Positions 4,298-19,471 of a stretch of DNA of 34,158 nucleotides are shown in pieces (position 1 is the stretch's first letter; each line of letters begins with the position of its first letter). The position numbers and the translations under genes are program-made. The DNA is from Promethearchaeota archaeon. Lineage in GTDB: Archaea > Asgardarchaeota > Lokiarchaeia > Sigyniarchaeales > SOKP01. The DNA is taken from assembly GCA_008080735.1 (NCBI GenBank), contig SHMW01000045.1:1-34158 (forward strand), given 5' to 3'. The notes beneath the pieces are model-generated. The model ran no database searches. It was not told where the DNA came from and was given only the letters and a program-made list of their open reading frames with translations.

Positions 4298-5302
4298 TCA
4301 TTTTTGCTTTCGGGTTGGTGGTGCCATAAATTCTGGTCCTATGGGATCCTTAATAGTGTCGTCTATTATTTGTTGAATTTTCTCTAAATCCTCTTCACTT
4401 AGACTCCACCCCATAACCTCATTGAAAGGTTCAACTTGTTTTGGATTTCTGGCCCCCCATAGAGCAGTTTCCACTCCTTTATCTAATATCCACCGAACAG
4501 CGAATGAAATTACTTCCATATCGTGTTTTTCTTGAGCAAATTCCTCTAATTTTTCTACTGCATTCAGATACTGGCTAAAACGCGGTTCTTGGAACTTCGG
4601 ATCATCATTCCGTAGATCGTCACCTTTAAACTTTCGGTCTTTACTCATCTTACCTGAAAGCATTCCCCGGCAAAGCGCACCGTAGGTAATCAAATAAATA
4701 TCATTCCGCTTGCAATACGGAAGAATATCATCCTCTATCTGCCTTTCAAACATATTATACGGCGGTTGACAACTATGTAATGGGGCATATTTCCTGAACT
4801 CGTCCATCTGATCCGGAGAATAGTTGCTTACACCAATCGCTCTTATCAATCCATCATCATATAATTCTTTCATTGCTTTTGCGGTCTCTTCGATTGGAGT
4901 AAGAGGATCCGGCCAATGGACTTGATAAAGGTCAATATAATCGGTTCTTAATCGTTTCAAAGAATCATCAACTTCCTTAAATATCCGCTCTCTTGACCCA
5001 TTCCGAAAAACATTTTGGTCCTCGTCCCATTCAAGGGTAACTTTTGTCGCGATAATAATGTTATCTCTTCCACCAAATTCTTGTACCGCTTGTCCTACAA
5101 TCTCCTCTGACTTCCCAAAACCATAGGCGGGCGCGGTATCGATCAATGAGATCCCTTTATCAAGTGCAGCCTTCACGGTTGCTAATGAATCTTCTTTCCT
5201 CTGAGGACCCCACATCCATTCCCCCAATGCCCACGTCCCTAATCCTATACGAGATGCATTTTTATCTGTACCTGGAAATTTAATTTTTTGCATATTATTC
5301 AC
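4298..5302 (-). CDS. Aldo/keto reductase (YhdN/AKR11-like)
   Basis: IGLGTW, IDTAPAYGFGKSE, IATK, LRTDYIDLYQVHWPD and IGVSN motifs. Confidence 0.95.
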   Translation of the reverse strand: MNNMQKIKFPGTDKNASRIGLGTWALGEWMWGPQRKEDSLATVKAALDKGISLIDTAPAYGFGKSEEIVGQAVQEFGGRDNIIIATKVTLEWDEDQNVFRNGSRERIFKEVDDSLKRLRTDYIDLYQVHWPDPLTPIEETAKAMKELYDDGLIRAIGVSNYSPDQMDEFRKYAPLHSCQPPYNMFERQIEDDILPYCKRNDIYLITYGALCRGMLSGKMSKDRKFKGDDLRNDDPKFQEPRFSQYLNAVEKLEEFAQEKHDMEVISFAVRWILDKGVETALWGARNPKQVEPFNEVMGWSLSEEDLEKIQQIIDDTIKDPIGPEFMAPPTRKQK

Positions 5303-5468
5303 ATTCTAAACAGAAGTCGCGAGAGTTAAAAATTCTTTATTCTATAAATTATTAAAAAAAGTAATAGAAAATCAGAACAATGTAGACTAATTTCAACTAG
5401 ATTTTTCAAATTTAATAAATTATTAAGTATCACATTATATATTATCAACTCTAAAATTTATACTATAT

Positions 5469-6425
5469 ATGTTCATAGATCCCCTACTTATAATAATCGC
5501 TTTTATCTTCGGAGCCACCTTCTTTATTGCTGAATTTTATGAGCCAGAACGTTCATACATCCCCGTTTCCCTTATCGCTGGAATATCCGTGGCATATTTC
5601 TTTTTAGTGGTTTTACCCGAAATTTCTGAGAGATTACCCGAATATCCGCTTCATTTAACTTTATTGGAGTATTTATTCGTCTTAATCGGGTTCGCGTTTA
5701 TTCATGTCTCTGAAAAGCTAATTCTCCAGAGAGTGGAGTCTAAATCTCAACAGAGAGTAAGAAAATTGATGAATATGGAGAATAATTTAGAAGCTGTGGA
5801 AGATAATATTGAGAATATTGTGAGCGAAGAACTAATGCATGAAGAATTGGACGAATTTGCCTTAAGGGATTTAGCTCGTGTACTTAAAAGTTTACATGAC
5901 CAAGGTTCTCAGATAAGAACTGATATTGGGGATCTGAAAATAAAAATTCATGATCACATTACCGAAGAATTTGGAAATTTGCGTTTTTTTACCAATTTTA
6001 CCTATCATTTTCTCATTGGATTAATTTTGGTAAATTTAATCTTAATTGATTTAATTTCTTCGATATTATTTTACTTTTTTGCTTTCTTTAGAACGGTGAT
6101 TCAGAATCAATCCTCTTCCAAATATAAAGTCTTTACTGATTTAGATATAGAGATAGATATGCAAGAAACTCAATTACAGAAGATATTATTAGCATCCGCA
6201 GCCCTTATTGGTATGGTTGTTGATTTAATTGTTGACTTAATCTATGAAATAAACTTAGAAGTACTGTATATTCTCTTTTCATTCACTTCAGGCGTAATTC
6301 TTTATACAATCGTGAGAGAAGTTTTACCAGAGAAAGAAAAGGGAAATCCGATCTTTTTCCTTGCGGGAGTGGTGGGATTTACCATAATCATTCTAACTAT
6401 TAATTTATTTGTTGTAATTTTATAA
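5469..6425 (+). CDS. Membrane protein with ZIP-transporter-like termini and a coiled-coil insert
   Basis: AGISVAYFFLVVLPE and SGVILYTIVREVLPE resemble ZIP TM motifs; there is a charged helical insert of about 85 aa. Confidence 0.6.
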   Translation: MFIDPLLIIIAFIFGATFFIAEFYEPERSYIPVSLIAGISVAYFFLVVLPEISERLPEYPLHLTLLEYLFVLIGFAFIHVSEKLILQRVESKSQQRVRKLMNMENNLEAVEDNIENIVSEELMHEELDEFALRDLARVLKSLHDQGSQIRTDIGDLKIKIHDHITEEFGNLRFFTNFTYHFLIGLILVNLILIDLISSILFYFFAFFRTVIQNQSSSKYKVFTDLDIEIDMQETQLQKILLASAALIGMVVDLIVDLIYEINLEVLYILFSFTSGVILYTIVREVLPEKEKGNPIFFLAGVVGFTIIILTINLFVVIL

Positions 6426-6485: not shown

Positions 6486-7151
6486 TTATTCAAAACTATA
6501 ACCTTCTTTTTCCCAAGCTTCTTTAATTATCGGATTCCTATTCATAAATTTGTTCATTAGGTCTTTTGGAACCTTATTAAGAGGGCATGCGAAATTAATA
6601 CAATCCGTACACACTTTTTTTTGTACCACCAATATCCACAGTAGCAAGGAAGGAATATAGAAAATTAATGCGAAATATAGCTGCCAAATGAGTAAGAATG
6701 GAATGGGAAAAGTCATCACCAAAATACCTCCGACTCCAAATTGGATTTTCTCGGATAAACTAAGTGGTCCCGGATCATATGTCCCCGCTTTATATTTTCC
6801 TTTGTCGATTACACAATGAAGTACCTTTTGAGATTCGTTTGCGAAATATGGACAATGATTACAAAGGATTCGCGTTTCCCATACGTTAAAAAAGAATAGC
6901 CCGTAGATTAACCAACTTATAAAGAAGATTAGTTTGAAAAGCAAAAGGACGGATGCAAATAGGACAATCAAAACGGTGGGAATAATTCCTATAAAGAGTG
7001 GCCCCGCAAAATACACTAAATATTTTATTTTAGGACGGCAGAAAAGCGTGCTATTAAGATCGCAATCTCCACACTCTTCCTCACTTTGCCATATACAGAT
7101 TTCCTTTCCTATTCCGATATCTAATTCTTTTTTACTCGATTTAGATTCCAT
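6486..7151 (-). CDS. Cys-rich 4-TM membrane protein (putative metal/Fe-S binding)
   Basis: CxWxxxxxCxxC..C, CNHCPY..HC and CTDCINFACP motifs flank two TM hairpins. Confidence 0.7.
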   Translation of the reverse strand: MESKSSKKELDIGIGKEICIWQSEEECGDCDLNSTLFCRPKIKYLVYFAGPLFIGIIPTVLIVLFASVLLLFKLIFFISWLIYGLFFFNVWETRILCNHCPYFANESQKVLHCVIDKGKYKAGTYDPGPLSLSEKIQFGVGGILVMTFPIPFLLIWQLYFALIFYIPSLLLWILVVQKKVCTDCINFACPLNKVPKDLMNKFMNRNPIIKEAWEKEGYSFE

Positions 7152-7241
7152 CTTTATAATCTTAATAAAAAAATAAGAAATATTATTTAAATTTATAGCA
7201 AACTTCCGCAGAAAAAAAAGAAAGAAGGAAAAGTTTTAAAA

Positions 7242-7580
7242 TTAAAGGATTTTTGTTTCTTCCGTAGGTGTGGGTGTTTTTATTACTAAAAATCGGAAAG
7301 TATTTTCAGATTCATTGCTTAATCGATGGGGGACTTTCGCCGGACTAAAGACCAATTCATCCTTGTGTACGGTTTCCTTTTCTTTGCCAATTTCTACAAT
7401 TCCGTCTCCTTCCAATACATAAAAACATACATCTACAGGAGTGACATGCATTTTAAGACTTTCACGTGGTTCTAGTGTTATATGGACGATTGTTGCATCT
7501 TTATAGGAAATTAATTTTCTCACATCTACTTGATGCGGTGTTTGAGCAACCTCCATTTCATTCATTTCTATTACTTTCAT
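7242..7580 (-). CDS. Cupin domain protein
   Basis: HVTP..FYVLEGDG..PHRLSN. An AGGAGGT SD precedes the ATG at 7580 (the ORF track starts at 7598). Confidence 0.88.
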   Translation of the reverse strand: MKVIEMNEMEVAQTPHQVDVRKLISYKDATIVHITLEPRESLKMHVTPVDVCFYVLEGDGIVEIGKEKETVHKDELVFSPAKVPHRLSNESENTFRFLVIKTPTPTEETKIL

Positions 7581-7613
7581 GGTTTTACCTCCTATCATCT
7601 AGTTACTTTTTGA

Positions 7614-8465
7614 TTATTTTGATATTCTTATTGCGTCTTGTGGACAAATCTCAGCGCAACGATTACATAAATAACATTCTGCTTTAGAATCATCCCTTCC
7701 TGCTTCTTGTATGGGACAAATTTGCTCGCATAAACCACAATCCGTACAATCTTCAGTTCTCACTAACGTATACCTGCTCAAACGACTAGTAAGATTTGTC
7801 ATTACTCCGAAAGGACAGGCTAAGGTACACCAAGGTCTATAAACGAAAAGACTTGCTATTACTGTGATTCCTAAGAGTATTAACGGAACCCAAAACACAA
7901 ATCCCAGCGGATTTACAAAAAGGGAAAACCCCAAGAATGGATTAAAGATCTGTAATACGTTCATTGACCAGAAGATCGCCATGATAAAAAATACTAAAAA
8001 CAACACTCCCCGAATCCCTAATCGGATCTTTTTTGGAATACCCAATATATATTTTCCCCGTTCGCTCTTTTTCGCATTGGTTTTAAATTGAACCTTCGAT
8101 ATTAATTCTTGTAATACGCCTAAAGGGCAGCCATATCCGCAGAATGTTCTTCCTATCACCAAAGTCGTCGCGAGTAGCAAGAATAAAATAATAATCATCG
8201 GAAGCACCGTCAAAACTGGATTCCCCATTGTAATTGTAAATAAGATTTGTTGGATGGGCATCACCGCGTTTGGAATGCCTCCTAATATAATCCCTCCTAT
8301 TACAAGTGAGATCCCATACAAAATAAGGGAATAGGTTTTTTTCATTTGTTTTCTATATAGAAGGAAAAATGCCACCACACTGAGAATTCCCCACAAAATA
8401 AACATCGGTACGATATCTATTAATTGAAGCTTAGCTCCACTCATTTGAAACATTTCTTTTATCAC
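7614..8465 (-). CDS. Membrane-bound 4Fe-4S binding protein (NapH/MauN/YccM-like)
   Basis: Two CxxxCP motifs (FCGYGCP, WCTLACP), TM helices and two CxxCxxCxxxCP motifs. Confidence 0.9.
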   Translation of the reverse strand: MIKEMFQMSGAKLQLIDIVPMFILWGILSVVAFFLLYRKQMKKTYSLILYGISLVIGGIILGGIPNAVMPIQQILFTITMGNPVLTVLPMIIILFLLLATTLVIGRTFCGYGCPLGVLQELISKVQFKTNAKKSERGKYILGIPKKIRLGIRGVLFLVFFIMAIFWSMNVLQIFNPFLGFSLFVNPLGFVFWVPLILLGITVIASLFVYRPWCTLACPFGVMTNLTSRLSRYTLVRTEDCTDCGLCEQICPIQEAGRDDSKAECYLCNRCAEICPQDAIRISK

Positions 8466-8536
8466 TTTTAAGTTTGTTCAATTTCAAATCGTATAATTAC
8501 ACCTAATACAATTCAAAAACTAAAATAAAATTAAAA

Positions 8537-8550
8537 CCGAACATGTTCAA
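8537..8550. promoter_or_regulatory. Putative operator CCGAACATGTTCAA (palindromic core GAACATGTTC)
   Basis: An identical 14-mer lies at 11178..11191; both are upstream of minus-strand gene starts. Confidence 0.7.
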
Positions 8551-8597
8551 TTTAAGCATAATTAGAAAATAAAAAAATTGTGAGATTTTTAAATTAT

Positions 8598-9131
8598 TTA
8601 TCCTTTCAGCTCATCGAGCAATTTCTCATATTTCTCATGAATGAGTTTCTTATCAAACCCCCAGAATTCATCGAGCATCTTATCTTGCTCTTCTTGGCTA
8701 AAATAGTCCATCACCGGTATGAAAAAATGCTCATCCTCCTTTACGATATGCTTGGGATAAAAGTTGCTTAATTCTTCTAATAATTCCAATACATCTTGTA
8801 TCGCCTCAATATTTCCTTCAGCATAACTATCCTTTGCCTCAAGCAACTTGCCGACGGTATTTCGCGCCCATACATGCTCCTCGACTAATTCATCCATTGT
8901 TTTTTGATGTTCCGCAGATAAGTCCTTATTCTCAAGCTCTCGAAAGAGAATATCCTCTTCTTTTCCGTGGTGTGTTCGGTCGGCATACATTCTGAAAAAA
9001 TCTACAGTTTTATCTATGAAGATGGGGTTCACTTTGTTATGTTCTTTTATTTTTTTACGCTCTTCTTGGATTATAGGTACTATTTTCTCAATTAGCCGGT
9101 GTTCTATCATTAAAGGGCCAATAGGCATCAT
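8598..9131 (-). CDS. Hemerythrin (HHE) domain protein
   Basis: Di-iron ligand pattern EH..HHGKEE..EH..HIVKED. Confidence 0.92.
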   Translation of the reverse strand: MMPIGPLMIEHRLIEKIVPIIQEERKKIKEHNKVNPIFIDKTVDFFRMYADRTHHGKEEDILFRELENKDLSAEHQKTMDELVEEHVWARNTVGKLLEAKDSYAEGNIEAIQDVLELLEELSNFYPKHIVKEDEHFFIPVMDYFSQEEQDKMLDEFWGFDKKLIHEKYEKLLDELKG

Positions 9132-9168
9132 TTTTCTCGTTCTTTACCTCTTAAAATTTGAATTTTGT

Positions 9169-11085
9169 TTATATTCCTAGATTCTTGCGCTTCTGTTCTA
9201 TATGGTTGAGAATATTTTTCACTGCTTCCTTGGTTTCGGTCTCCACGTGTAATTGCGCACCAGTGATCGTTTTAAGATCCTCAGTTAATAACTTCATTAA
9301 ATCAGGTCCACCCGTCATTGTCGGAACTGGATTCACATACGTATACAGTCCGAGGGCCAAAGCGAAGACAGCATCGATAGTGGCTTTTTGTTCCATGTAT
9401 TCGGGAGCTGCTGCAGCAACCGGTAGATCCGAGATAGGAACATCTCCTAATGCATGAGCGATTGCTCCGAGTAAATCCGCTAATCGTCCAGTATCTGTAC
9501 AGGTTCCAAAACTTAAAACGGGAGGTATATTCAATTTTTCGCATACCGACTGAAGACCCGATCCCGCGAGATCTTTCGCTTCAAGGTTGGTTAAGCCTGC
9601 TACTTGGACTGCCCCATTTCCGCATCCCATAGATAGCACTAAGATATCATTTTTGATCAATTCTTTGGTGATATCAACCGTATGTACATCTTGTCCATAA
9701 TCACGCAGGGAAGTGCACGACACCATTCCGACAACACCTCTAACTGCACCCTCTTTGATGACGTCCAGTAAAGGATCCAATGATCCTCCCAGAGCATCGA
9801 GGATCGACTCTGTAGAAAATCCTACAATCGTCTCGTTCAAATCAAATCCAGTGAGGGGCTCAATAGTATCTCTCCGCTGTCTAAAGTTGCTAATAGCCAT
9901 GTCGATTAATTTCGCGGCTTGAGTTTCCGCCTTTTCTGGAACATAATTCTCTCGCTCCTCAATCCCTTCAAAGGCAACAACTTCACTCACGGGTATCAAT
10001 TTGAATTTGTATTTCTCTGCATATAACGGGTCGACGGGCATCGAACAATTCATATCTGCGACAAACACGTCAATACAACCACTACCTAAAATCGCCTCTT
10101 GCATTATCCAATTTCCTGTAAATCCATAGAATACATCGTCCATCTCCCATCTCTGGATCATCTCTTGACCCGTTTCAATGTTGGCGATTATACGCAAACC
10201 CTTGGCTCCAACTTCTGTTGCCTTTTCCTGCCATTCTGGTTGCCGTGCTAACTGAACTAATGCAAATCCCAAGAATGGTTCGTGACCATTGGGTAAAATA
10301 TTTACATAATCGGGATCCAATACTCCCAAATTGACACGCATTGTATGGGGTTTTGGTACCCCATATAATATATCTTGACAGAACTCATTTATAATCTGAC
10401 TCTGGTATGCCATCGCAATCCCAAGACGCATCGCCTTCAGAGCAAGGCTTTTATAATAGCCGTCCACATTCGTCAAACAAGAACTTGTGGATAACATCAT
10501 CTCTCCAAATATTCCACCGGGAAATATGCCTAGCTTTTTCCATAGGTTCTGTCTTTCTTTTGGAGCTAATGCTTCTACAATTTTACTCGGCTCATCATAT
10601 TTTCTATTGAAATCTCGTTCGACATATTCACATAACTTAATCGCCGTCTCTTCCACGGAACCCATGCCATTAATCCCCAATCTATCCGCGAATGATTTGA
10701 GCTTTTCAGGTGAGCTGATTTGGTACGGTGTTGTGCCAATTGCCGTGGCTCGAAGAGTTTTTATGGTTTGCTCCGTGTGATACTGATACGTTGAGGCGCC
10801 CATCACGTTTCTTAACAGCATTTTCCGCATCGCCATCCCATCCGCAGTTATTCCGCACACACCGCGCTTATCAATCGATGCATCCGCTCGGCACGGACCG
10901 TTCGAACAAAAATCACATCTCGCACCTTTTAAACAAAACGGGCATCGCTTGTCGGGATCTCCGCCAAATCCTTGCGCCTCAAACCGATCCCAAATATTAT
11001 TCATCCCATCGCGCTTTATTCGTTCATAGCCTTTTCTTACACTCTCATGATACGAAATTCGTTCTCCTTCCATACTTATGATCAC
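9169..11085 (-). CDS. cooS: CooS-family (CODH/prismane) protein with atypical C-cluster (CooS-V-like)
   Basis: CxxC D-cluster; CxxCxxGPC...C B-cluster; NGHEP, DMNC, SCT, GCG, GTCTD and EQKA motifs. NIETGQE replaces canonical CCTGNE. Confidence 0.92.
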   Translation of the reverse strand: MIISMEGERISYHESVRKGYERIKRDGMNNIWDRFEAQGFGGDPDKRCPFCLKGARCDFCSNGPCRADASIDKRGVCGITADGMAMRKMLLRNVMGASTYQYHTEQTIKTLRATAIGTTPYQISSPEKLKSFADRLGINGMGSVEETAIKLCEYVERDFNRKYDEPSKIVEALAPKERQNLWKKLGIFPGGIFGEMMLSTSSCLTNVDGYYKSLALKAMRLGIAMAYQSQIINEFCQDILYGVPKPHTMRVNLGVLDPDYVNILPNGHEPFLGFALVQLARQPEWQEKATEVGAKGLRIIANIETGQEMIQRWEMDDVFYGFTGNWIMQEAILGSGCIDVFVADMNCSMPVDPLYAEKYKFKLIPVSEVVAFEGIEERENYVPEKAETQAAKLIDMAISNFRQRRDTIEPLTGFDLNETIVGFSTESILDALGGSLDPLLDVIKEGAVRGVVGMVSCTSLRDYGQDVHTVDITKELIKNDILVLSMGCGNGAVQVAGLTNLEAKDLAGSGLQSVCEKLNIPPVLSFGTCTDTGRLADLLGAIAHALGDVPISDLPVAAAAPEYMEQKATIDAVFALALGLYTYVNPVPTMTGGPDLMKLLTEDLKTITGAQLHVETETKEAVKNILNHIEQKRKNLGI

Positions 11086-11177: not shown

Positions 11178-11191
11178 CCGAACATGTTCAA
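11178..11191. promoter_or_regulatory. Putative operator CCGAACATGTTCAA upstream of cooS
   Basis: Identical to 8537..8550 and adjacent to a TATA-like tract at about 11156..11170. A weaker copy (10/14) lies at 11131..11144. Confidence 0.7.
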
Positions 11192-13724: not shown

Positions 13725-14315
13725 TTGTTTATAATGGATATGAGTAAAAAAAAAAAGTTTAATGAGCTGCTCGGAATTGATGATGATGACAAAAAGATCA
13801 TCGAAATGATTGAAGAGAATCCAGATATTACACATAGTGATATTGCTAAGGAAATAGAAAAGAGCCAACCCGCAGTAGGTGCGCGCATTATCAAATTAGA
13901 ACGAAAGCATCTCCTAACTAAACAAGTTGGGTTCAATATTAAGAAGGTTGATATTAAAACCGCGATCGTGTTTATCTCTACCAAAGATGTCGATGATATT
14001 GTAGAGAAAATACAAGGGTGTCCATTCATCAACCATGCATTTAAGATATCTGGAGATTATAATGTGCTCTGTTTTATCGCAGCCGCCGACCTACAGACTA
14101 TTGAGCGGTTAGTAGATTTATGCTTCCGACGGGATCCGAATGTTCTTTCCGTCAAAACCAATATTCTGATTGACAGTATTCACGACTTCGTTGTGCCGAT
14201 AGATTTTCAAATTGAGGATTTTGATGGACGATACTGTGGCCCCGACTGTCATCTTAAAACAGATATGCCGAAATTCAAATTCGAACAAGAAGAAGCAGAA
14301 GAACCAGAAGCTTAA
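13725..14315 (+). CDS. Lrp/AsnC family regulator with Cys-containing tail (paralog 1)
   Basis: IDDDDKKII..SQPAVGARIIKLE HTH; CPF, ISGDYN, CGPDC. The real start is probably the ATG at 13734 or 13740. Confidence 0.92.
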   Translation: MFIMDMSKKKKFNELLGIDDDDKKIIEMIEENPDITHSDIAKEIEKSQPAVGARIIKLERKHLLTKQVGFNIKKVDIKTAIVFISTKDVDDIVEKIQGCPFINHAFKISGDYNVLCFIAAADLQTIERLVDLCFRRDPNVLSVKTNILIDSIHDFVVPIDFQIEDFDGRYCGPDCHLKTDMPKFKFEQEEAEEPEA

Positions 14316-14479
14316 CACATATTTTCTATTTTTATTAGGCTCTACGAACTTACGAATATTTTTTCGAATTTTCACACTTTTTTCAATAAATCTATAGGTA
14401 GTTTTAAATATCTGGGTTCTATAATTTTTCATATTAGTTCAAATAATATACAAACATTTTACCTCTTTTTTAACTACCC

Positions 14480-15268
14480 ATGACCACTACTATATATTAT
14501 TTTACGGGTACGGGCAATTCTCTGAGTATTGCGAGAGGGATTGCGGCAGAGCTGGATGAGAGTGAACTTATTTTTATGCCAAACCTCTGGAAGGATGAGA
14601 AAATTGTGGCGACGAGCGAACGAGTGGGTTTTATTTTTCCAATGTATTATTTCGGTTTGCCGCAAATCGTTTATGAATTCCTAGAAAAGATCCATCTTGA
14701 TACAGCTCAGTATTTATTTGCGGGAGTCGATAGGGACGGAACTATGGACGGTGTTGCGTTTGTGCAGATTGAACAATTATTTTCTGAGAAGGGAAAGCAA
14801 CTGAATGCGGGGTGGTTTCTTCAAATGCCGAATAATGACATCCCAGTCGATGATCTTAACTCAAAAGAAGAAATAAAAGAAAAATTAAGGCAGATCAAAC
14901 CTCAGATCGAGGAGATTGCAGAATATATAAGAGAAAAGAAAAACCATCCGCCGCCACTTCCTAAAAAAAGAATTAAATCGGTAGAGAAAACCAATACAAT
15001 CTTTCGCAAGGGCGTGTTTACAATGGATCAGAATTATTATGCCGATGAGAACTGTAGCTCCTGTGGAATATGCGCGCAAGTATGCCCTGTGGAAAATATC
15101 ATAATGGAAAATACCAAACCACTTTGGAACAATCAATGCCAGATGTGTGTGGCGTGTATTAATTTTTGCCCCGAAGAGGCTATCCAGTATGCTGACAAAA
15201 CTCAAGAGAGAGGGAGATACCATCATCCTGAGATTACGGTTCAAGAGATTATTGACCAAAAACATTGA
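14480..15268 (+). CDS. Flavodoxin-ferredoxin fusion (EFR1 family)
   Basis: YFTGTGNS FMN loop, two CxxCxxCxxxCP motifs and a C-terminal RYHHP. Confidence 0.9.
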   Translation: MTTTIYYFTGTGNSLSIARGIAAELDESELIFMPNLWKDEKIVATSERVGFIFPMYYFGLPQIVYEFLEKIHLDTAQYLFAGVDRDGTMDGVAFVQIEQLFSEKGKQLNAGWFLQMPNNDIPVDDLNSKEEIKEKLRQIKPQIEEIAEYIREKKNHPPPLPKKRIKSVEKTNTIFRKGVFTMDQNYYADENCSSCGICAQVCPVENIIMENTKPLWNNQCQMCVACINFCPEEAIQYADKTQERGRYHHPEITVQEIIDQKH

Positions 15269-15435
15269 AACTCCCTTTTTTAAGAAAAACTCGATTATAC
15301 ACCTATTTTTAAATATCCCATAAAAACTATTAATATCAGAATTTAGATCGGTAATAATGATGGGATTTGTTAAACTATCAGAAGAATTGAAATGGGATAA
15401 AAAACCCTTTCATATGTCTATTGATACTATAAGTT

Positions 15436-17289
15436 CTAATCATCTTCCTTGTTTTTTTCAATAAATCGATAATCAATATAGAGCCACAAATATCCGAATA
15501 TCGCAGCAAGGATCGAGGAAATAAGAATTCCCAGTTTTGATTGAATGATAAAAAATTCCTCATAATAGGCCAGTTCGGTCACAAATATCGCACTTGTAAA
15601 TCCTATTCCTCCCAAAATGGCTGCGCCAAACAATTCTCGGAAGTTCATATTTTCAGGGAGTTCACATAATTTTGATATACAGCAACCAATATAAGAAAAT
15701 AGAGAGATGCCAATTATTTTTCCAAAAATCCCGACAATGATCCCTATCGGGATTGGTTGAAAAACGTTTTGAAGTAGATTGGTATTAATTAGTACGATTC
15801 CCGAATTTGCGAGAGCAAAGATCGGCAGAACCAAAAAATGGACTTGTTCGTTCAGTGTTTCTTCCAGTTTAGATAAAGTTGGTGTTGCTTCTCTTGCTAC
15901 TCGTTGTAGGGTAAATAAAGCTTTATCCACCTCTTCGGTTGTATTTGAAGTATCTGTTTCAGTTGCATGTTTATACTCTTCTAGGGTTTCCCAGCTAGTT
16001 TGGATAAAGCCAGATGGGTCTATTTTTGGTTTTAATGGAATAGTAAACGCTAAAAGTACCCCTGCTAAGACGGGGCTTATGCCAGAGTATAAGAAAGCAA
16101 TCCATGCACCGACTCCGATAAGAGTATATATTTCGCTCCGTTGAATTTTCAGCGAATTGAAAAAAAATGCAAGAAGAATCCATCCTATTCCAATTAGAAC
16201 AGCTAACCAATTAATTCCTTCTGCATAAAAAACAGCTATTACCAAAATACCTCCTATCGCATCTGCTACAGCATAGCTCATAAGAAAAATACGCGATGAA
16301 TCCTTCACTTTAGATCCTAAAAGCAATAAAACCGTCAATGCAAGTGCCACATCTGTCGTAATTGGAATAGCCCAACCTCTTATTGTACCCGATTGAAGAT
16401 TAAATAAAATGAATATAATGCCAGGAAAAATCATCCCTCCTACTGCAGCCATTATTGGGAGACATGCTTCCTCAAATGAAGATAATATACCCTGCTTAGC
16501 TTCTCGTTTAATTTCTAATCCGATCATAAAGAAGAATAATGTCATTAGTCCTTCATTAATCCATTCTTTTAAAGAAAGAATCAGTTCAAAATCCCCAATT
16601 GCAATTCCAATGGGGTACTCCCAAAAATCCAAATAAAATGATCCAAATATATTTGCCAAAATCAGGCCTACAACAAAACTAGAAATAAGCAAGAAACCAC
16701 TGGTAGCTCGTAAAGAAATTTTTTTTTCAATAGGATCCAAGATATACTCTTCAATGGGACCTTCTTCCTCACGCTCTTCAAGTAATTTCTTTGGTTTCGG
16801 GCTCGGTTCTGCTTCCGCTTCTAATTTTAGTCTTTCAAGATCAAATGCCGTTGGATCAAAATTCTCTTCAATATACTTGTATATTTCATCTCTTATCCTC
16901 CTAAAGATAGGTTTGAGATCCTTCGCTTCATTGTTTCTTGGAGGGCGCTGAATATTGAGGTGGGTATAATTTTTTCCCTCTGGAAATGAAGGACTCGATT
17001 CTACACTATCATCATATAGCGATACTACATAGTCAAATACCTTTTCACCTAAACTTTTTGTATGGCTATCAGAATGCTGTTCTGAAATATCAATATCTAT
17101 TTCTTGCATCACGTCGATTGCTATAGGGTGAACTTCTTTAGGATCCGTTCCAGACGTAAAAATCTCGTAGTGGTCCCCATATCTTGATCTCAAAATTCCT
17201 TTTGCCATCTGTGAACGGACACTATCTGAAGGGCTTAGAAACATTACAAGCAATTTTTCATTTTCTTTCTCATCATTAGAGTTAGACAT
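15436..17289 (-). CDS. nhaA: Fusion of degenerate ArsC/LMW-PTP domain with NhaA-type Na+/H+ antiporter
   Basis: N-terminal FLSPSDSVRSQMAKG..FRRIRDEI; C-terminal WINEGLM, GLEIKRE, GWAIPITTD, PIFALANSG and GIGFT. The ATG at 17289 is preferred over the TTG at 17328. Confidence 0.88.
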   Translation of the reverse strand: MSNSNDEKENEKLLVMFLSPSDSVRSQMAKGILRSRYGDHYEIFTSGTDPKEVHPIAIDVMQEIDIDISEQHSDSHTKSLGEKVFDYVVSLYDDSVESSPSFPEGKNYTHLNIQRPPRNNEAKDLKPIFRRIRDEIYKYIEENFDPTAFDLERLKLEAEAEPSPKPKKLLEEREEEGPIEEYILDPIEKKISLRATSGFLLISSFVVGLILANIFGSFYLDFWEYPIGIAIGDFELILSLKEWINEGLMTLFFFMIGLEIKREAKQGILSSFEEACLPIMAAVGGMIFPGIIFILFNLQSGTIRGWAIPITTDVALALTVLLLLGSKVKDSSRIFLMSYAVADAIGGILVIAVFYAEGINWLAVLIGIGWILLAFFFNSLKIQRSEIYTLIGVGAWIAFLYSGISPVLAGVLLAFTIPLKPKIDPSGFIQTSWETLEEYKHATETDTSNTTEEVDKALFTLQRVAREATPTLSKLEETLNEQVHFLVLPIFALANSGIVLINTNLLQNVFQPIPIGIIVGIFGKIIGISLFSYIGCCISKLCELPENMNFRELFGAAILGGIGFTSAIFVTELAYYEEFFIIQSKLGILISSILAAIFGYLWLYIDYRFIEKNKEDD

Positions 17290-17533
17290 TTTCAATAAAG
17301 TAAGCTTAAAAGATTCTCTAAGTTGCAAGATATTGCCAGAATAATTTAAAAATTGCGTTTAAAAATCTTAAGAAACCTTTGTATAGTCTAAATTGAGTTA
17401 AGCGATTTTAGGATAAATGATAGAATTCACGCAGTCTCTCTTATATTACACATAATAAAGATTTACAATCAAGAAAGAATCACGAAAAATGAAGGAAATG
17501 AACCTTCATAATATTAATGAGAAAAAAAAAGGT

Positions 17534-18085
17534 TTATTCTTCTTTTTTTTCTGCTTCTTGTGCTTGTTTCCATTTGCAGTTCGGGCCGCAGCCTTCCTCG
17601 ATTGTTGGATTATGATTTTCGGAATCAAAATCAATCGGAAGGATTAAATCTTTGGCGATGTCCGTCACTATCTCCATTGAGACGTTTTGAACATCTTCTT
17701 GGTTGCGGAAATGAAAATTTATAATGTTATCTAACTTTTCAAGCTGGGAACTCGCTAGCATAATGCAAATGTTATGTTCTCCGCTTAATCGAAATGCATT
17801 TAACATGAAAGGACAATATCTGGCCATGTCCATGATCTCTTCTGGGTTACGGGTCTTTAATTCTACTGTCGCGAGATATAAATCAACACGTTTAAAATTG
17901 ATACCGGGCTGGAATTTTAGAATACCATTGCTTTCTAATTTCTTAATCCGCATACCTACGGTCGGTTGACTGCGATCTATTTTTTGTGCTATTTGGGTAT
18001 GTGTCATATCGGGATGCTCCTGTACAAGCGTGATGATCTTGCGGTCTATCTCGTCCAATTCTAATCGTTCACTAATCATTGTCAA
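17534..18085 (-). CDS. Lrp/AsnC family regulator with Cys tail (paralog 2)
   Basis: LDEIDRKII..SQPTVGMRIKKLE; CPF, LSGEHN, HNP..CGPNC. Confidence 0.93.
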   Translation of the reverse strand: MTMISERLELDEIDRKIITLVQEHPDMTHTQIAQKIDRSQPTVGMRIKKLESNGILKFQPGINFKRVDLYLATVELKTRNPEEIMDMARYCPFMLNAFRLSGEHNICIMLASSQLEKLDNIINFHFRNQEDVQNVSMEIVTDIAKDLILPIDFDSENHNPTIEEGCGPNCKWKQAQEAEKKEE

Positions 18086-18191
18086 TTTTTTGGGGTAAAA
18101 ATTTGTTATTAATTTATTAAATATTACATATCATTTATATTTTATAAGTCTTCAAAAATTCTAAACTCATCATATAGTCAAGATAGGCAGT

Positions 18192-18746
18192 TCAGTTTTC
18201 AGTAAGCAGATATTGATGGCAAAAATCACACTCTTCGATGCAATTTTTATGATTAGTCGGATCATGGAGTTGTTGCTCTTCGAATCTCACGGGAATAGTG
18301 AAATCCTTCGCAATGTCTAATACAATTTCTACTTTTACTCTATTAGAATGCGGACTTTTCCGAAAATGGGTATTCACAATCGCATCTATATATTCTAGCT
18401 TAGTACTCACAATTAACAGCACGATGTTATAATCTCCGGATACTGAGAAGCAATTCAGAACAAATGGACAGCATTCAGCTAATTCAAATATTTTTTCTGG
18501 ATTTTTTGTCTGAATATTCACTCTCCCCATATAGAGTTCGACGCCCCTAAAATTTACTCCTGGTTGGATAAGAAACGCCCCAGATTTTAGGAGCTTCCTA
18601 AGCCTAATTCCTATTGTTGGTTGGCTCCTTCCAATGAGCCCAGCTATTTCATTGTGGGTCATATCTGGGTTTTCTTGTAAAAGTGTTATAATTTTTCTGT
18701 CGACTTCATCAAAATGTAATTTTTCACTTAGGGTCATTTTCACCAA
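18192..18746 (-). CDS. Lrp/AsnC family regulator with Cys tail (paralog 3)
   Basis: FDEVDRKII..SQPTIGIRL; CCPF, VSGDYN, HDP..CIEECDFC. Confidence 0.93.
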   Translation of the reverse strand: MVKMTLSEKLHFDEVDRKIITLLQENPDMTHNEIAGLIGRSQPTIGIRLRKLLKSGAFLIQPGVNFRGVELYMGRVNIQTKNPEKIFELAECCPFVLNCFSVSGDYNIVLLIVSTKLEYIDAIVNTHFRKSPHSNRVKVEIVLDIAKDFTIPVRFEEQQLHDPTNHKNCIEECDFCHQYLLTEN

Positions 18747-18773
18747 TATAATCTTAATTTAATAATCTTATTT

Positions 18774-18800
18774 GAGTATAATTATCTTAACTTATATAAA
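18774..18800 (-). promoter_or_regulatory. TATA box (18791..18800) plus 15-bp semi-palindromic Lrp-type site (18774..18788)
   Basis: GAGTATAATTATCTT is the exact reverse complement of 19504..19518 and occupies the same position relative to the TATA box. Confidence 0.65.
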
Positions 18801-18931
18801 TTTTATACATTTGGACATATATGCTATTATTGATACTCAAAAGGATTCCCATATAGAAAGAAAAAAATTAGACATTGGAACAAAATCAATAGATTGTCAG
18901 TAAGCTATGCTGATTGAATACAATTTTCTCC

Positions 18932-19471
18932 CTATATTAAGGATTCCTGCGTACAAAAGGGACACTCCTTAATACATTGGTCGGGATTGATGGGATTATG
19001 TTCTTCTTGCTGCTTAAATTTGACGGGTAAGATCAAATCATTGGCAATATCAACCACGATATCCATCTCGACCTTCTTAATATCTTCATGTATGCGATAG
19101 TGATCATTTACTATTGAATCTATATACTTCAAGTCCGTACTTACGAGCAACATGAAAAGATTATAATCTCCGGAGATTAAAAAACAATTGAGCACATACG
19201 GACATAATTTTGAAACATTGAAAAATCTTTCAGGGCAATCAGCATCCATTCGGACTCTTGCCATATGAATATCAACCGCTTTGAAATTTATACCGGGTTG
19301 GATGCCAAACATGTTAGTTTTCAGTAATTTCCGCAGTCTAATTCCCACAGTTGGCTGCGAACGTTGAATAAGCTGTGCTATTTCATCATGTGTAAGCGCA
19401 GGATCCTTTTGAAGGAGTGTGATGATTTTTTTATCGATTTTATCGAATTTTGGTTTGCTATTTGAAACCAT
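18932..19471 (-). CDS. Lrp/AsnC family regulator with Cys tail (paralog 4)
   Basis: FDKIDKKII..SQPTVGIRL; CPY, ISGDYN, HNP..CIKECPFC. Confidence 0.93.
   Translation of the reverse strand: MVSNSKPKFDKIDKKIITLLQKDPALTHDEIAQLIQRSQPTVGIRLRKLLKTNMFGIQPGINFKAVDIHMARVRMDADCPERFFNVSKLCPYVLNCFLISGDYNLFMLLVSTDLKYIDSIVNDHYRIHEDIKKVEMDIVVDIANDLILPVKFKQQEEHNPINPDQCIKECPFCTQESLI

Follow-up and report, generated by a model that had tools for sequence, protein, structure and literature searches.

A CooS-V gene in an operator-linked redox regulon of a Promethearchaeota archaeon, with features of HCP-type stress operons

Previous work showed that CooS-V of C. hydrogenoformans, a homolog of carbon monoxide dehydrogenase (CODH), carries a redox-morphing Fe-S-O hybrid cluster like that of the hybrid cluster protein (HCP) and is without CO/CO2 activity (PMC9311411). 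The role of its class, clade D, has been left open. The authors of the structure were unable to assign a function, the gene in C. hydrogenoformans was reported to be without informative context, and a 2026 survey of clade D found 64% of the genes solitary, with "no clear pattern" and a stress role unproven (PMC13056359). The context of hcp itself has been described: frdX encodes a ferredoxin-like partner of hcp in HcpR regulons (PMC1274295), and in C. difficile nitric oxide (NO) raises frdX expression about 200-fold, with frdX-hcp being needed for NO tolerance (PMC12915319). A third described system is the denitrification regulon of haloarchaea, where the motif CGAACATGTTCG precedes nirK, nor and nosZ of Haloferax mediterranei by 66-79 nt (PMC10062603). 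Here we compare with these systems a cooS locus at 6486-11085 of contig SHMW01000045.1 of a Promethearchaeota archaeon (assembly GCA_008080735.1; 4.1 Mb, 140 contigs, 93% complete). The stretch analysed, 34,158 nt long, is referred to below as the window. An initial annotation of the window, made from sequence alone, proposed that five genes form a nitrosative/oxidative stress module in which a non-canonical CooS takes the place of HCP. The placing of CooS-V in an HCP-type stress regulon is largely supported by the results below, and what we infer to be new is an HCP-type nitrosative/oxidative stress regulon with a different terminal enzyme, CooS-V, and an archaeal regulator.

The cooS gene (9169-11085, minus strand) encodes 638 aa from an annotated GTG at 11085, though the ATG at 11073 is likely the true start. 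The product has the CODH scaffold, scoring 715 bits with TIGR01702 (cut-off 478) and 474 bits with PF03063, and is far below the cut-offs of both HCP models (TIGR01703, 35.9 bits against 360.8; NF003658, 35.4 against 367). The best solved structure was 7b7q, which is CooS-V of C. hydrogenoformans, matched end to end over residues 9-638 with E 7.8e-201. At the equivalent of Cys295 (CODH-II numbering), a Ni-binding residue in canonical enzymes, the Asgard protein has Glu304; in the solved homolog this exchange gives the Fe-S-O hybrid cluster. In the alignment, IETGQE of the Asgard protein stands against CCTGNE in the canonical enzyme 6t7j and IESGQE in 7b7q; the ligand motifs NGHEPF, IE(T/S)GQE and GTCTDTGR are identical to those of 7b7q, and a CxxC-type D-cluster motif is common to both proteins. 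The 80 closest cooS-V loci, with 72-79% protein identity, served as the set of relatives. Residues E304, H268, C347, C457, C488 and C529 were invariant in all 80, which retain all ligands of clusters B, D and C along with the Lys and His of the catalytic pocket. The nearest of these loci are from metagenome-assembled genomes of Promethearchaeota (Asgard), and the hosts of the Glu-type relatives include Asgard archaea, Thermoplasmata, Bathyarchaeia, Methanofastidiosa, Dehalococcoidia, Deltaproteobacteria and WOR-3. The earlier assignment of the gene to the Glu-substituted CooS-V, or clade D, class is thus confirmed at the level of protein sequence.

No normal Ni-CODH is seen in this sequence: the Cys is replaced by Glu, and no CooC-type gene is nearby. 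The CooC-type family was absent from the window and from the 109 operon mates of the relatives. Pfam annotation of the other large open reading frames (ORFs) bore out the absence of cooC, cooF and acs from the window; these genes are not near the C. hydrogenoformans gene either. The genome does have a CdhC fragment at a contig edge (C11:2-178) and CdhD/E, so that an acetyl-CoA synthase/CODH is almost certainly present, and the idea of cooS-V as the sole CODH of the organism was rejected. The cdhA gene is missing probably because the contig break that cuts cdhC left it unassembled. Two differences from the C. hydrogenoformans system stand out: the host is an archaeon, and the gene is in an operator-controlled regulon with a hemerythrin gene and a NapH-like/cupin unit.

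The five ORFs of 6486-11085 are all on the minus strand, at the positions originally given. A gene for a hemerythrin-like HHE di-iron protein of 177 aa (8598-9131; PF01814, 43.3 bits) begins 37 nt 3' of cooS, is preceded by a GAGGT ribosome-binding-like site, and is, as judged from this layout, probably co-transcribed with cooS. Farther downstream are the genes for a NapH-like membrane Fe-S protein of 283 aa (7614-8465; PF12801 (Fer4_5), 61 bits, plus two Fer4 motifs) and, starting 15 nt 3' of it, for a Cupin_2 protein of 118 aa (7242-7598; PF07883, 55 bits). The fifth gene (6486-7151) encodes a Cys-rich protein of 221 aa with three predicted transmembrane helices.

An exact 14-mer, TTGAACATGTTCGG, precedes both the cooS-hemerythrin pair and the NapH-like-cupin pair and contains the 10-bp palindrome GAACATGTTC; in the form (T)TGAACATGTTCG(G), which occurs twice in the window, the palindrome heads both pairs. 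Operator 1 (11178-11191, minus strand) is followed after about 10 nt by a TATA-like run; counted from its first base, the operator precedes the GTG at 11085 by 106 nt and the ATG at 11073 by 118 nt. Operator 2 (8537-8550, minus strand) follows the oligo-T run that ends the cooS-hemerythrin unit and directly precedes a TATA-like run; the distance from its first base to the NapH-like GTG at 8465 is 85 nt. The GAACATGTTC core occurs only three times in the 4.1-Mb genome, two of these in the window. The third (C12:52411; L086:4912) is 79 nt upstream of a DUF166 gene, facing a RIO-kinase-like gene, and each of the three is in the promoter region of a gene whose counterparts in other genomes also have it. 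Because the exact 14-mer heads both units and the core is so rare, the grouping of the first four genes is beyond chance, and they are probably two transcription units of one regulon. The coordinates of the locus should accordingly be extended to 11191, so that the upstream operator is included. One-mismatch sites were not accepted as operators: three in the window are intragenic, and one on contig C20 is inside an MttB gene.

The claim of a co-regulated set thus held for cooS, hemerythrin, NapH-like and cupin genes and failed for the Cys-rich gene. The latter has no operator, and an oligo-T run and a TATA-like region of its own separate it from the cupin gene. It was absent from L002, G003, G010 and every other related locus examined. 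Given its own site-less promoter region and its absence elsewhere, we exclude it from the module. The protein had no Pfam or NCBIfam match, and in the protein Atlas it was found with unnamed archaeal membrane proteins only. The gene has the look of a further insertion, present in this genome only.

In the related loci the palindrome was strongly enriched. The 80 cooS-V loci contained 27 core sites, in 18 loci, compared to 0-3 for 19 composition-matched control palindromes. In 14 of the 80 the exact palindrome preceded cooS by 85-115 nt, and variants with one or two mismatches were at -87 to -100 in four more. These cooS-side sites are in the region shared with a divergent gene for a NADH:rubredoxin oxidoreductase-rubredoxin (NROR-Rd) fusion. 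The site was also found, mostly at 49 nt, upstream of a gene for a 263-aa ferredoxin (FrdX-like, see below), and in nine Asgard loci it stood 65-88 nt before a hemerythrin ortholog located apart from cooS. When three relatives were scanned genome-wide, intergenic sites were found before DUF166 (all three), cupin and HTH_10 paralog genes; most of the extra exact sites in these scans (G041, G051, G054) were intragenic, at the level of a reversed-pattern control, and were discarded. The extended consensus in Asgard loci is TTCGAACATGTTCGAA. As far as placement of the site can define it, the operator marks an Asgard regulon of di-iron, Fe-S and flavin redox proteins, whose genes in the relatives are cooS-V, hemerythrin, FrdX-like, NROR-Rd fusion, DUF166, cupins and the HTH_10 regulator gene itself. 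Membership of this regulon is independent of adjacency in the Asgard relatives. DUF166 orthologs of three other Asgard genomes have the site 60-69 nt upstream; DUF166 is a conserved, unexplained member of the regulon.

Simple synteny gives a different impression, since in the 80 loci the hemerythrin gene follows cooS in two, the NapH-like gene is near cooS in one, and the Cys-rich gene in none. A verdict of "module not conserved", which these counts suggested, was dropped after the operator analysis and a family-level search. In that search the NapH-like protein was found, at 45-57% identity, in nine of 31 genomes of the same family, and in eight of the nine it was linked to regulon genes or to the operator. 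G003, which is of the same genus, has operator, NapH-like, cupin and ZIP genes as in the window. L002/G012 has both operators and both units. In G010 a 9-kb cluster reads NROR-Rd, operator, cooS, cupin, NapH-like, operator, cupin, operator, FrdX-like, HTH_10, FMN reductase and glutaredoxin-like, with three operators in total, one of them between the NapH-like and cupin genes. In G024, G009, G015 and G011 the NapH-like gene is beside an HTH_10 paralog; in G024 and G009 the operator is beside a cupin gene, and G009 also has a hemerythrin. Across the eight linked genomes the NapH-like, cupin, hemerythrin, cooS and HTH_10 genes recur as neighbours in changing combinations.

Other genes are frequent neighbours of cooS-V. 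A protein of ~263 aa with an N-terminal 2x[4Fe-4S] domain and a Cys-rich C-terminal domain was encoded on the same strand in 26 of the 80 loci, and the NROR-Rd fusion was divergent in 17. FMN reductase was found in 14 loci, flavodiiron protein in 12, the HTH_10 regulator in 11, a glutaredoxin-like protein in 9, small cupins in 6 (all adjacent) and Rrf2 regulators in 6 (all bacterial). The gene order was Rrf2, cooS-V, FrdX-like in six bacterial loci and FrdX-like, cupin, cooS-V in three archaeal loci. A stand-alone PAS_10 protein is encoded next to cooS-V in some loci (e.g., L020:7463-7849).

The 263-aa family connects CooS-V with HCP. A search with the FrdX-like protein gave 80 further loci, mostly from anaerobic bacteria, of which 23 had hcp adjacent and two had cooS-V; a place beside hcp is what defines frdX by position (PMC1274295). 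Other neighbours in these 80 loci were CRP/FNR (24) and Rrf2 (16) regulators, cupins (12) and YgbA_NO (4). Within the taxonomic order of the window, the gene order hcp, FrdX-like is seen in one genome, and in another hcp itself is preceded by GAACATGTTA at a distance of 83 nt. Because the FrdX-like family adjoins both, CooS-V and HCP are alternative occupants of one gene context; by gene neighbourhood, CooS-V shares a dedicated ferredoxin family with HCP. The HCP-type context that the initial annotation had proposed was thus found. In the comparison of Glu-type cooS and hcp neighbourhoods that it suggested, the FrdX-like gene was common to both, accompanying cooS-V in 26 of the 80 cooS-V loci and adjoining hcp in 23 of the 80 further FrdX-like loci; hemerythrin and NapH-like genes were rarely adjacent to cooS. 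In the C-terminal domain of the FrdX-like protein, C113, C166, H175, C188 and C223-C224 were invariant (alignment A2), which suggests a third metal centre. This domain (motifs CPS, ADC, CPKxD and MEVPCC, plus one invariant His; e.g., L027:10063-10848) has no Pfam model.

The likeness to the hcpR/nsrR-frdX-hcp operons (PMC1274295, PMC12915319) extends beyond the ferredoxin. In both, counting the relatives of the Asgard locus, an enzyme of known or predicted hybrid-cluster type is paired with the FrdX-like family, cupin and hemerythrin-like accessory genes are present, and there is one palindromic operator. The Asgard regulon differs in that the terminal enzyme would be CooS-V and not HCP (36 bits with the HCP model, whose cut-off is 361), the probable regulator belongs to the archaeal HTH_10 proteins and not to CRP/FNR or Rrf2, and a NapH-like protein has been added in this lineage.

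The operator and its likely regulator lead to the haloarchaea. The window operator is identical to the motif of the H. mediterranei nor and nos promoters. Mutation of CGAACATGTTCG there gave significantly lower nor and nos promoter activity, with a decrease for nirK that was not significant, and the haloarchaeal consensus is CGAAYATDKTYG (PMC10062603). Candidate regulators in haloarchaea are short bacterio-opsin-activator-like proteins (NarO, DmsR), one of them encoded in the nirK-nor cluster (PMC11218638). Contig C90 of the Promethearchaeota assembly encodes a short Bat/NarO-type HTH_10 regulator (C90:1980-2657), next to FMN reductase, with orthologs in 22 of 24 genomes of the family. From sequence homology and site placement, this protein is the probable binder of the palindrome. 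Its matches in a plasmid collection were to haloarchaeal megaplasmids only (139 records, 28-32% identity over >90% of the length), and a full-length BLASTP comparison with the product of a regulator-like gene inside a haloarchaeal nirK/nor-type cluster gave 1e-31. Lrp paralogs were considered as regulators of the operator and are not favoured; the site is often without an adjacent Lrp gene, and it tracks HTH_10 genes.

In Hfx. larsenii (L301, plasmid pHl5678-2) and Hgm. borinquense (L302, plasmid pHBOR02) the homolog is inside nirK/nor-type clusters. The nirK gene is annotated as such in H. borinquense and is a multicopper-oxidase-domain gene in H. larsenii. Both clusters also hold halocyanin and DUF2249 genes and a 760-aa "cbb3 oxidase subunit I" gene, which by its size and place is presumably nor. 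Allowing one mismatch, the clusters contained 8 and 6 copies of the site, compared to ~0.5 expected. The operator was 51-53 nt upstream of the HTH_10 genes in the Asgard genome G054 and in Hfx. larsenii (53 nt in the haloarchaeal cluster). Palindromes in the two haloarchaeal clusters stand before the HTH regulator, halocyanin, radical SAM, DUF2249 and multicopper oxidase genes, a placement that fits autoregulation and a regulon larger than the four reductases. Compared with the haloarchaeal denitrification regulon (PMC10062603, PMC11218638), then, the Asgard regulon has the same CGAACATGTTCG core, similar distances to start codons, a full-length homolog of the candidate regulator, and sites before the regulator gene itself. 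The comparison at sequence level makes operator and likely regulator homologous to a haloarchaeal N-oxide system. The targets differ: respiratory nirK, nor and nos plus copper proteins in aerobic or facultative halophiles, as against cytoplasmic Fe-S and di-iron proteins in a strict-anaerobe lineage. No denitrification enzyme genes were found in the Asgard regulon loci examined.

The accessory proteins fit their family assignments to different degrees. The hemerythrin (PF01814 cut-off 25.3 bits) has the HHE ligands H11, H55..E59, H86 and H128..E132 invariant in 81 orthologs, as is H165. It has the HHE domain only and is not of the RIC/YtfE/DnrN type, in which ScdA_N is combined with a hemerythrin domain; a PDB sequence search found no relative. 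There was no NCBIfam match for the hemerythrin at E 0.01, and none for the Cys-rich protein or the HTH_10 regulator. The NapH-like protein has the architecture of NapH/MauN, with a membrane domain of five predicted helices, two CX3CP motifs (CGYGCP at 109, CTLACP at 213) and two C-terminal [4Fe-4S] motifs (CxxCxxCxxxCP at 240 and 264). The curated scores are low: TIGR02163 gave 69.5 bits against a cut-off of 213 and NF007013 59.5 against 234. Because all the Fe-S motifs are in K/R-rich, presumably cytoplasmic, loops, they should face the cytoplasm, the side of CooS-V. The protein thus resembles membrane ferredoxins of the NapH/NosH/NosR type in its multi-helix domain and cytoplasmic motifs, and differs from them in being below the family cut-off and without a NapG/NapA or NosZ partner; the suggested partner is instead the cytoplasmic CooS-V. 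The window contains no nap, nos or mau genes. Replacement of the FrdX-like gene by the NapH-like gene was rejected, as the genome of L002 and G010 carry both. The cupin has two conserved His residues, and in L002, G003, G010 and G024 its orthologs (60-68% identity) are found under the operator, either after the NapH-like gene or facing it. A second subfamily of small cupins is represented next to cooS-V (6-7 loci) and next to frdX-like/hcp (12 loci). A DUF1858-DUF438-hemerythrin-PAS_10 protein is encoded near NapH-like genes in other Asgard orders (e.g., L089:2055-3449).

The surroundings of the locus are variable. The closest relatives lack a counterpart of the segment 11355-13530, between cooS and an Lrp gene (13725-14315); the segment contains a HEAT-like ORF and orphan ORFs of 103, 161 and 185 aa, and no Pfam families. 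In L002 and L014 an orthologous Lrp gene (84-86% identity) is directly divergent from cooS, and thus the segment looks like an insertion. On the other side, ZIP transporter and aldo-keto reductase genes (4298-6425) are syntenic with L002, L003, L010 and G003. Since the ZIP gene comes directly after cooS in L010, the hemerythrin/NapH-like/cupin block appears as a presence/absence polymorphism between cooS and ZIP. The region 13725-19471 has four regulator genes of the Lrp/AsnC type (13725, 17534, 18192, 18932), and between these are genes for a flavodoxin-ferredoxin fusion (14480-15268) and for a fusion of a low-molecular-weight phosphatase/ArsC-like domain with NhaA (15436-17328). Rfam and tRNA scans of the window gave no matches.

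The explanation that we consider probable, taken as a whole, is that the two units form a regulon for inducible reductive defence in which CooS-V is an HCP-like terminal reductase. The defence would be directed at reactive nitrogen oxides, namely NO and hydroxylamine, with O2 or peroxide as possible further targets, and the regulon would answer to N-oxides and/or oxygen. The HTH_10 protein would bind the operators of both units. CooS-V would act in the cytoplasm, and dedicated Fe-S carriers would deliver electrons to its [2Fe-2S]/[4Fe-4S] clusters. The FrdX-like protein would be the carrier in most lineages; in this one, the cytoplasm-facing clusters of the NapH-like protein may also draw on the membrane electron pool, a route suggested by co-regulation and predicted topology. 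The hemerythrin may protect or repair iron centres, bind gas, or sense. FMN reductase, a glutaredoxin-like protein and a flavodiiron protein accompany the regulon genes in relatives. That the Asgard CooS-V works like HCP we infer by analogy with the C. hydrogenoformans protein, and the inducing signal, substrate and electron path should be read in the same conditional way. A more specific form of this explanation, in which a NarO/Bat-type HTH_10 protein and CGAACATGTTCG run an N-oxide/oxygen regulon with CooS-V as the terminal reductase fed by the FrdX-like protein and, in this family, the NapH-like protein, is attractive and may be correct, but we hold it tentatively. If it is true, NO/hydroxylamine detoxification, or even respiratory reduction, would be tied to the membrane electron pool.

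Several points weigh against reductive nitrogen-oxide defence. In vitro, NO reduction by C. hydrogenoformans CooS-V was undetectable and hydroxylamine turnover was slow (PMC9311411). The Asgard HTH_10 protein, with one Cys and without a recognisable sensor domain, gives no sequence clue to the signal it responds to, and NarO has been described as sensing oxygen and not NO (PMC11218638). The label "FrdX-like" comes from the position of the gene beside hcp and not from comparison with published FrdX. In the archaeon's own genome the family is represented by a diverged C-terminal fragment, of 36% identity, at the edge of contig C90 (C90:3-512), beside the HTH_10 regulator gene; the absences of an intact FrdX-like gene and of cdhA are probably assembly artefacts of the contig breaks at C90:3-512 and C11:2-178. 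NapH-like homologs of other Asgard orders (L088-L094) are in a TrmB/Lrp/POR-gamma/UbiA context without the operator. The NapH-like link to the regulon is thus family-specific, and these homologs were set aside as evidence on cooS. The proposal that CooS stands in for HCP also came out weaker than first put. No hcp was found in the assembly, where the single Prismane-family gene is this cooS, and CooS-V and HCP did not overlap in 41 relatives (22 CooS-V and 4 HCP; P ~0.04). There was likewise no overlap in 201 genomes of the phylum (41 CooS-V and 4 HCP), with P ~0.4. HCP being rare, mutual exclusivity was not used as evidence, and elsewhere clade D and HCP often co-occur (PMC13056359). "Instead of HCP" is a fair description of this genome and phylum, not of a tested replacement.

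The best-surviving alternative, although unlikely in our judgement, is that the regulon is mainly for O2/peroxide defence or for response to redox shifts, with CooS-V being peroxidase-like or O2-scavenging beside NROR-Rd, flavodiiron protein and an O2-binding hemerythrin. The neighbours of cooS-V listed above (NROR-Rd in 17 of 80 loci, FMN reductase in 14, flavodiiron in 12, glutaredoxin-like in 9) speak for it, the named regulator NarO is described as an oxygen sensor, and HCPs reduce peroxide too (PMC9311411). Further, the NROR-rubredoxin-flavodiiron chain of anaerobes is recognisable in the relatives, where the NROR-Rd fusion and flavodiiron protein adjoin cooS-V and the fusion is under the same operator, and both NROR-rubredoxin and flavodiiron proteins have parts in O2 defence and in NO defence. 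In the window the genes of this chain are not beside the module, and no NROR-rubredoxin gene was detected in the assembly, an absence that also counts against the reductive-defence reading. Against this alternative stand the use of the same operator, with the same family of candidate regulators, at nirK, nor and nos of haloarchaea (PMC10062603), and the presence of Rrf2 regulators and YgbA_NO among FrdX-like neighbours elsewhere.

We regard as improbable that CooS-V, instead of detoxifying, senses redox state or a gas or helps to maintain iron centres, its cluster rearrangement signalling to, or servicing, partner proteins such as the hemerythrin, the cupin and the Fe-S carriers. The hybrid cluster does rearrange reversibly with redox state, with turnover being slow (PMC9311411), redox-sensing or regulatory roles were suggested for clade D (PMC13056359), and the hemerythrin-like proteins of NO regulons (DnrN/YtfE) are accessory, not catalytic (PMC1274295). 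The conservation of CooS-V at 72-79% identity across archaeal and bacterial phyla, with every cluster ligand and the pocket Lys/His kept, fits a conserved catalytic site, and the pairing with dedicated electron carriers like those of HCP also speaks for an enzyme. Chance juxtaposition at a variable insertion site, or a normal Ni-CODH in CO metabolism, is very improbable: rare adjacency in the 80 loci, the direct cooS-ZIP order in L010 and the 64% of solitary clade D genes (PMC13056359) would suit chance, but it is already largely refuted by the nearly unique 14-mer common to both promoters and by the operator being kept before the same gene families in many genomes, whereas the Ni-CODH alternative is opposed by the invariant Glu (80/80), by the lack of CooC-type genes among 109 operon mates, and by CdhC and CdhD/E, which indicate a separate acetyl-CoA synthase/CODH for C1 metabolism.

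Reductive defence by an HCP-like CooS-V would give the class, whose function had been left unassigned, its first testable clue to a role. Three independent lines of context lead to it: the Fe-S partner shared with HCP; the conserved operator through which cooS-V is linked, in Asgard archaea, with genes for di-iron proteins and redox defence; and the homology of operator and regulator to the haloarchaeal system for nitrite, nitric-oxide and nitrous-oxide reductase genes. Together these lines make the role of CooS-V experimentally addressable, and they are relevant to the handling of reactive nitrogen and oxygen species by anaerobic relatives of the eukaryotic ancestor.

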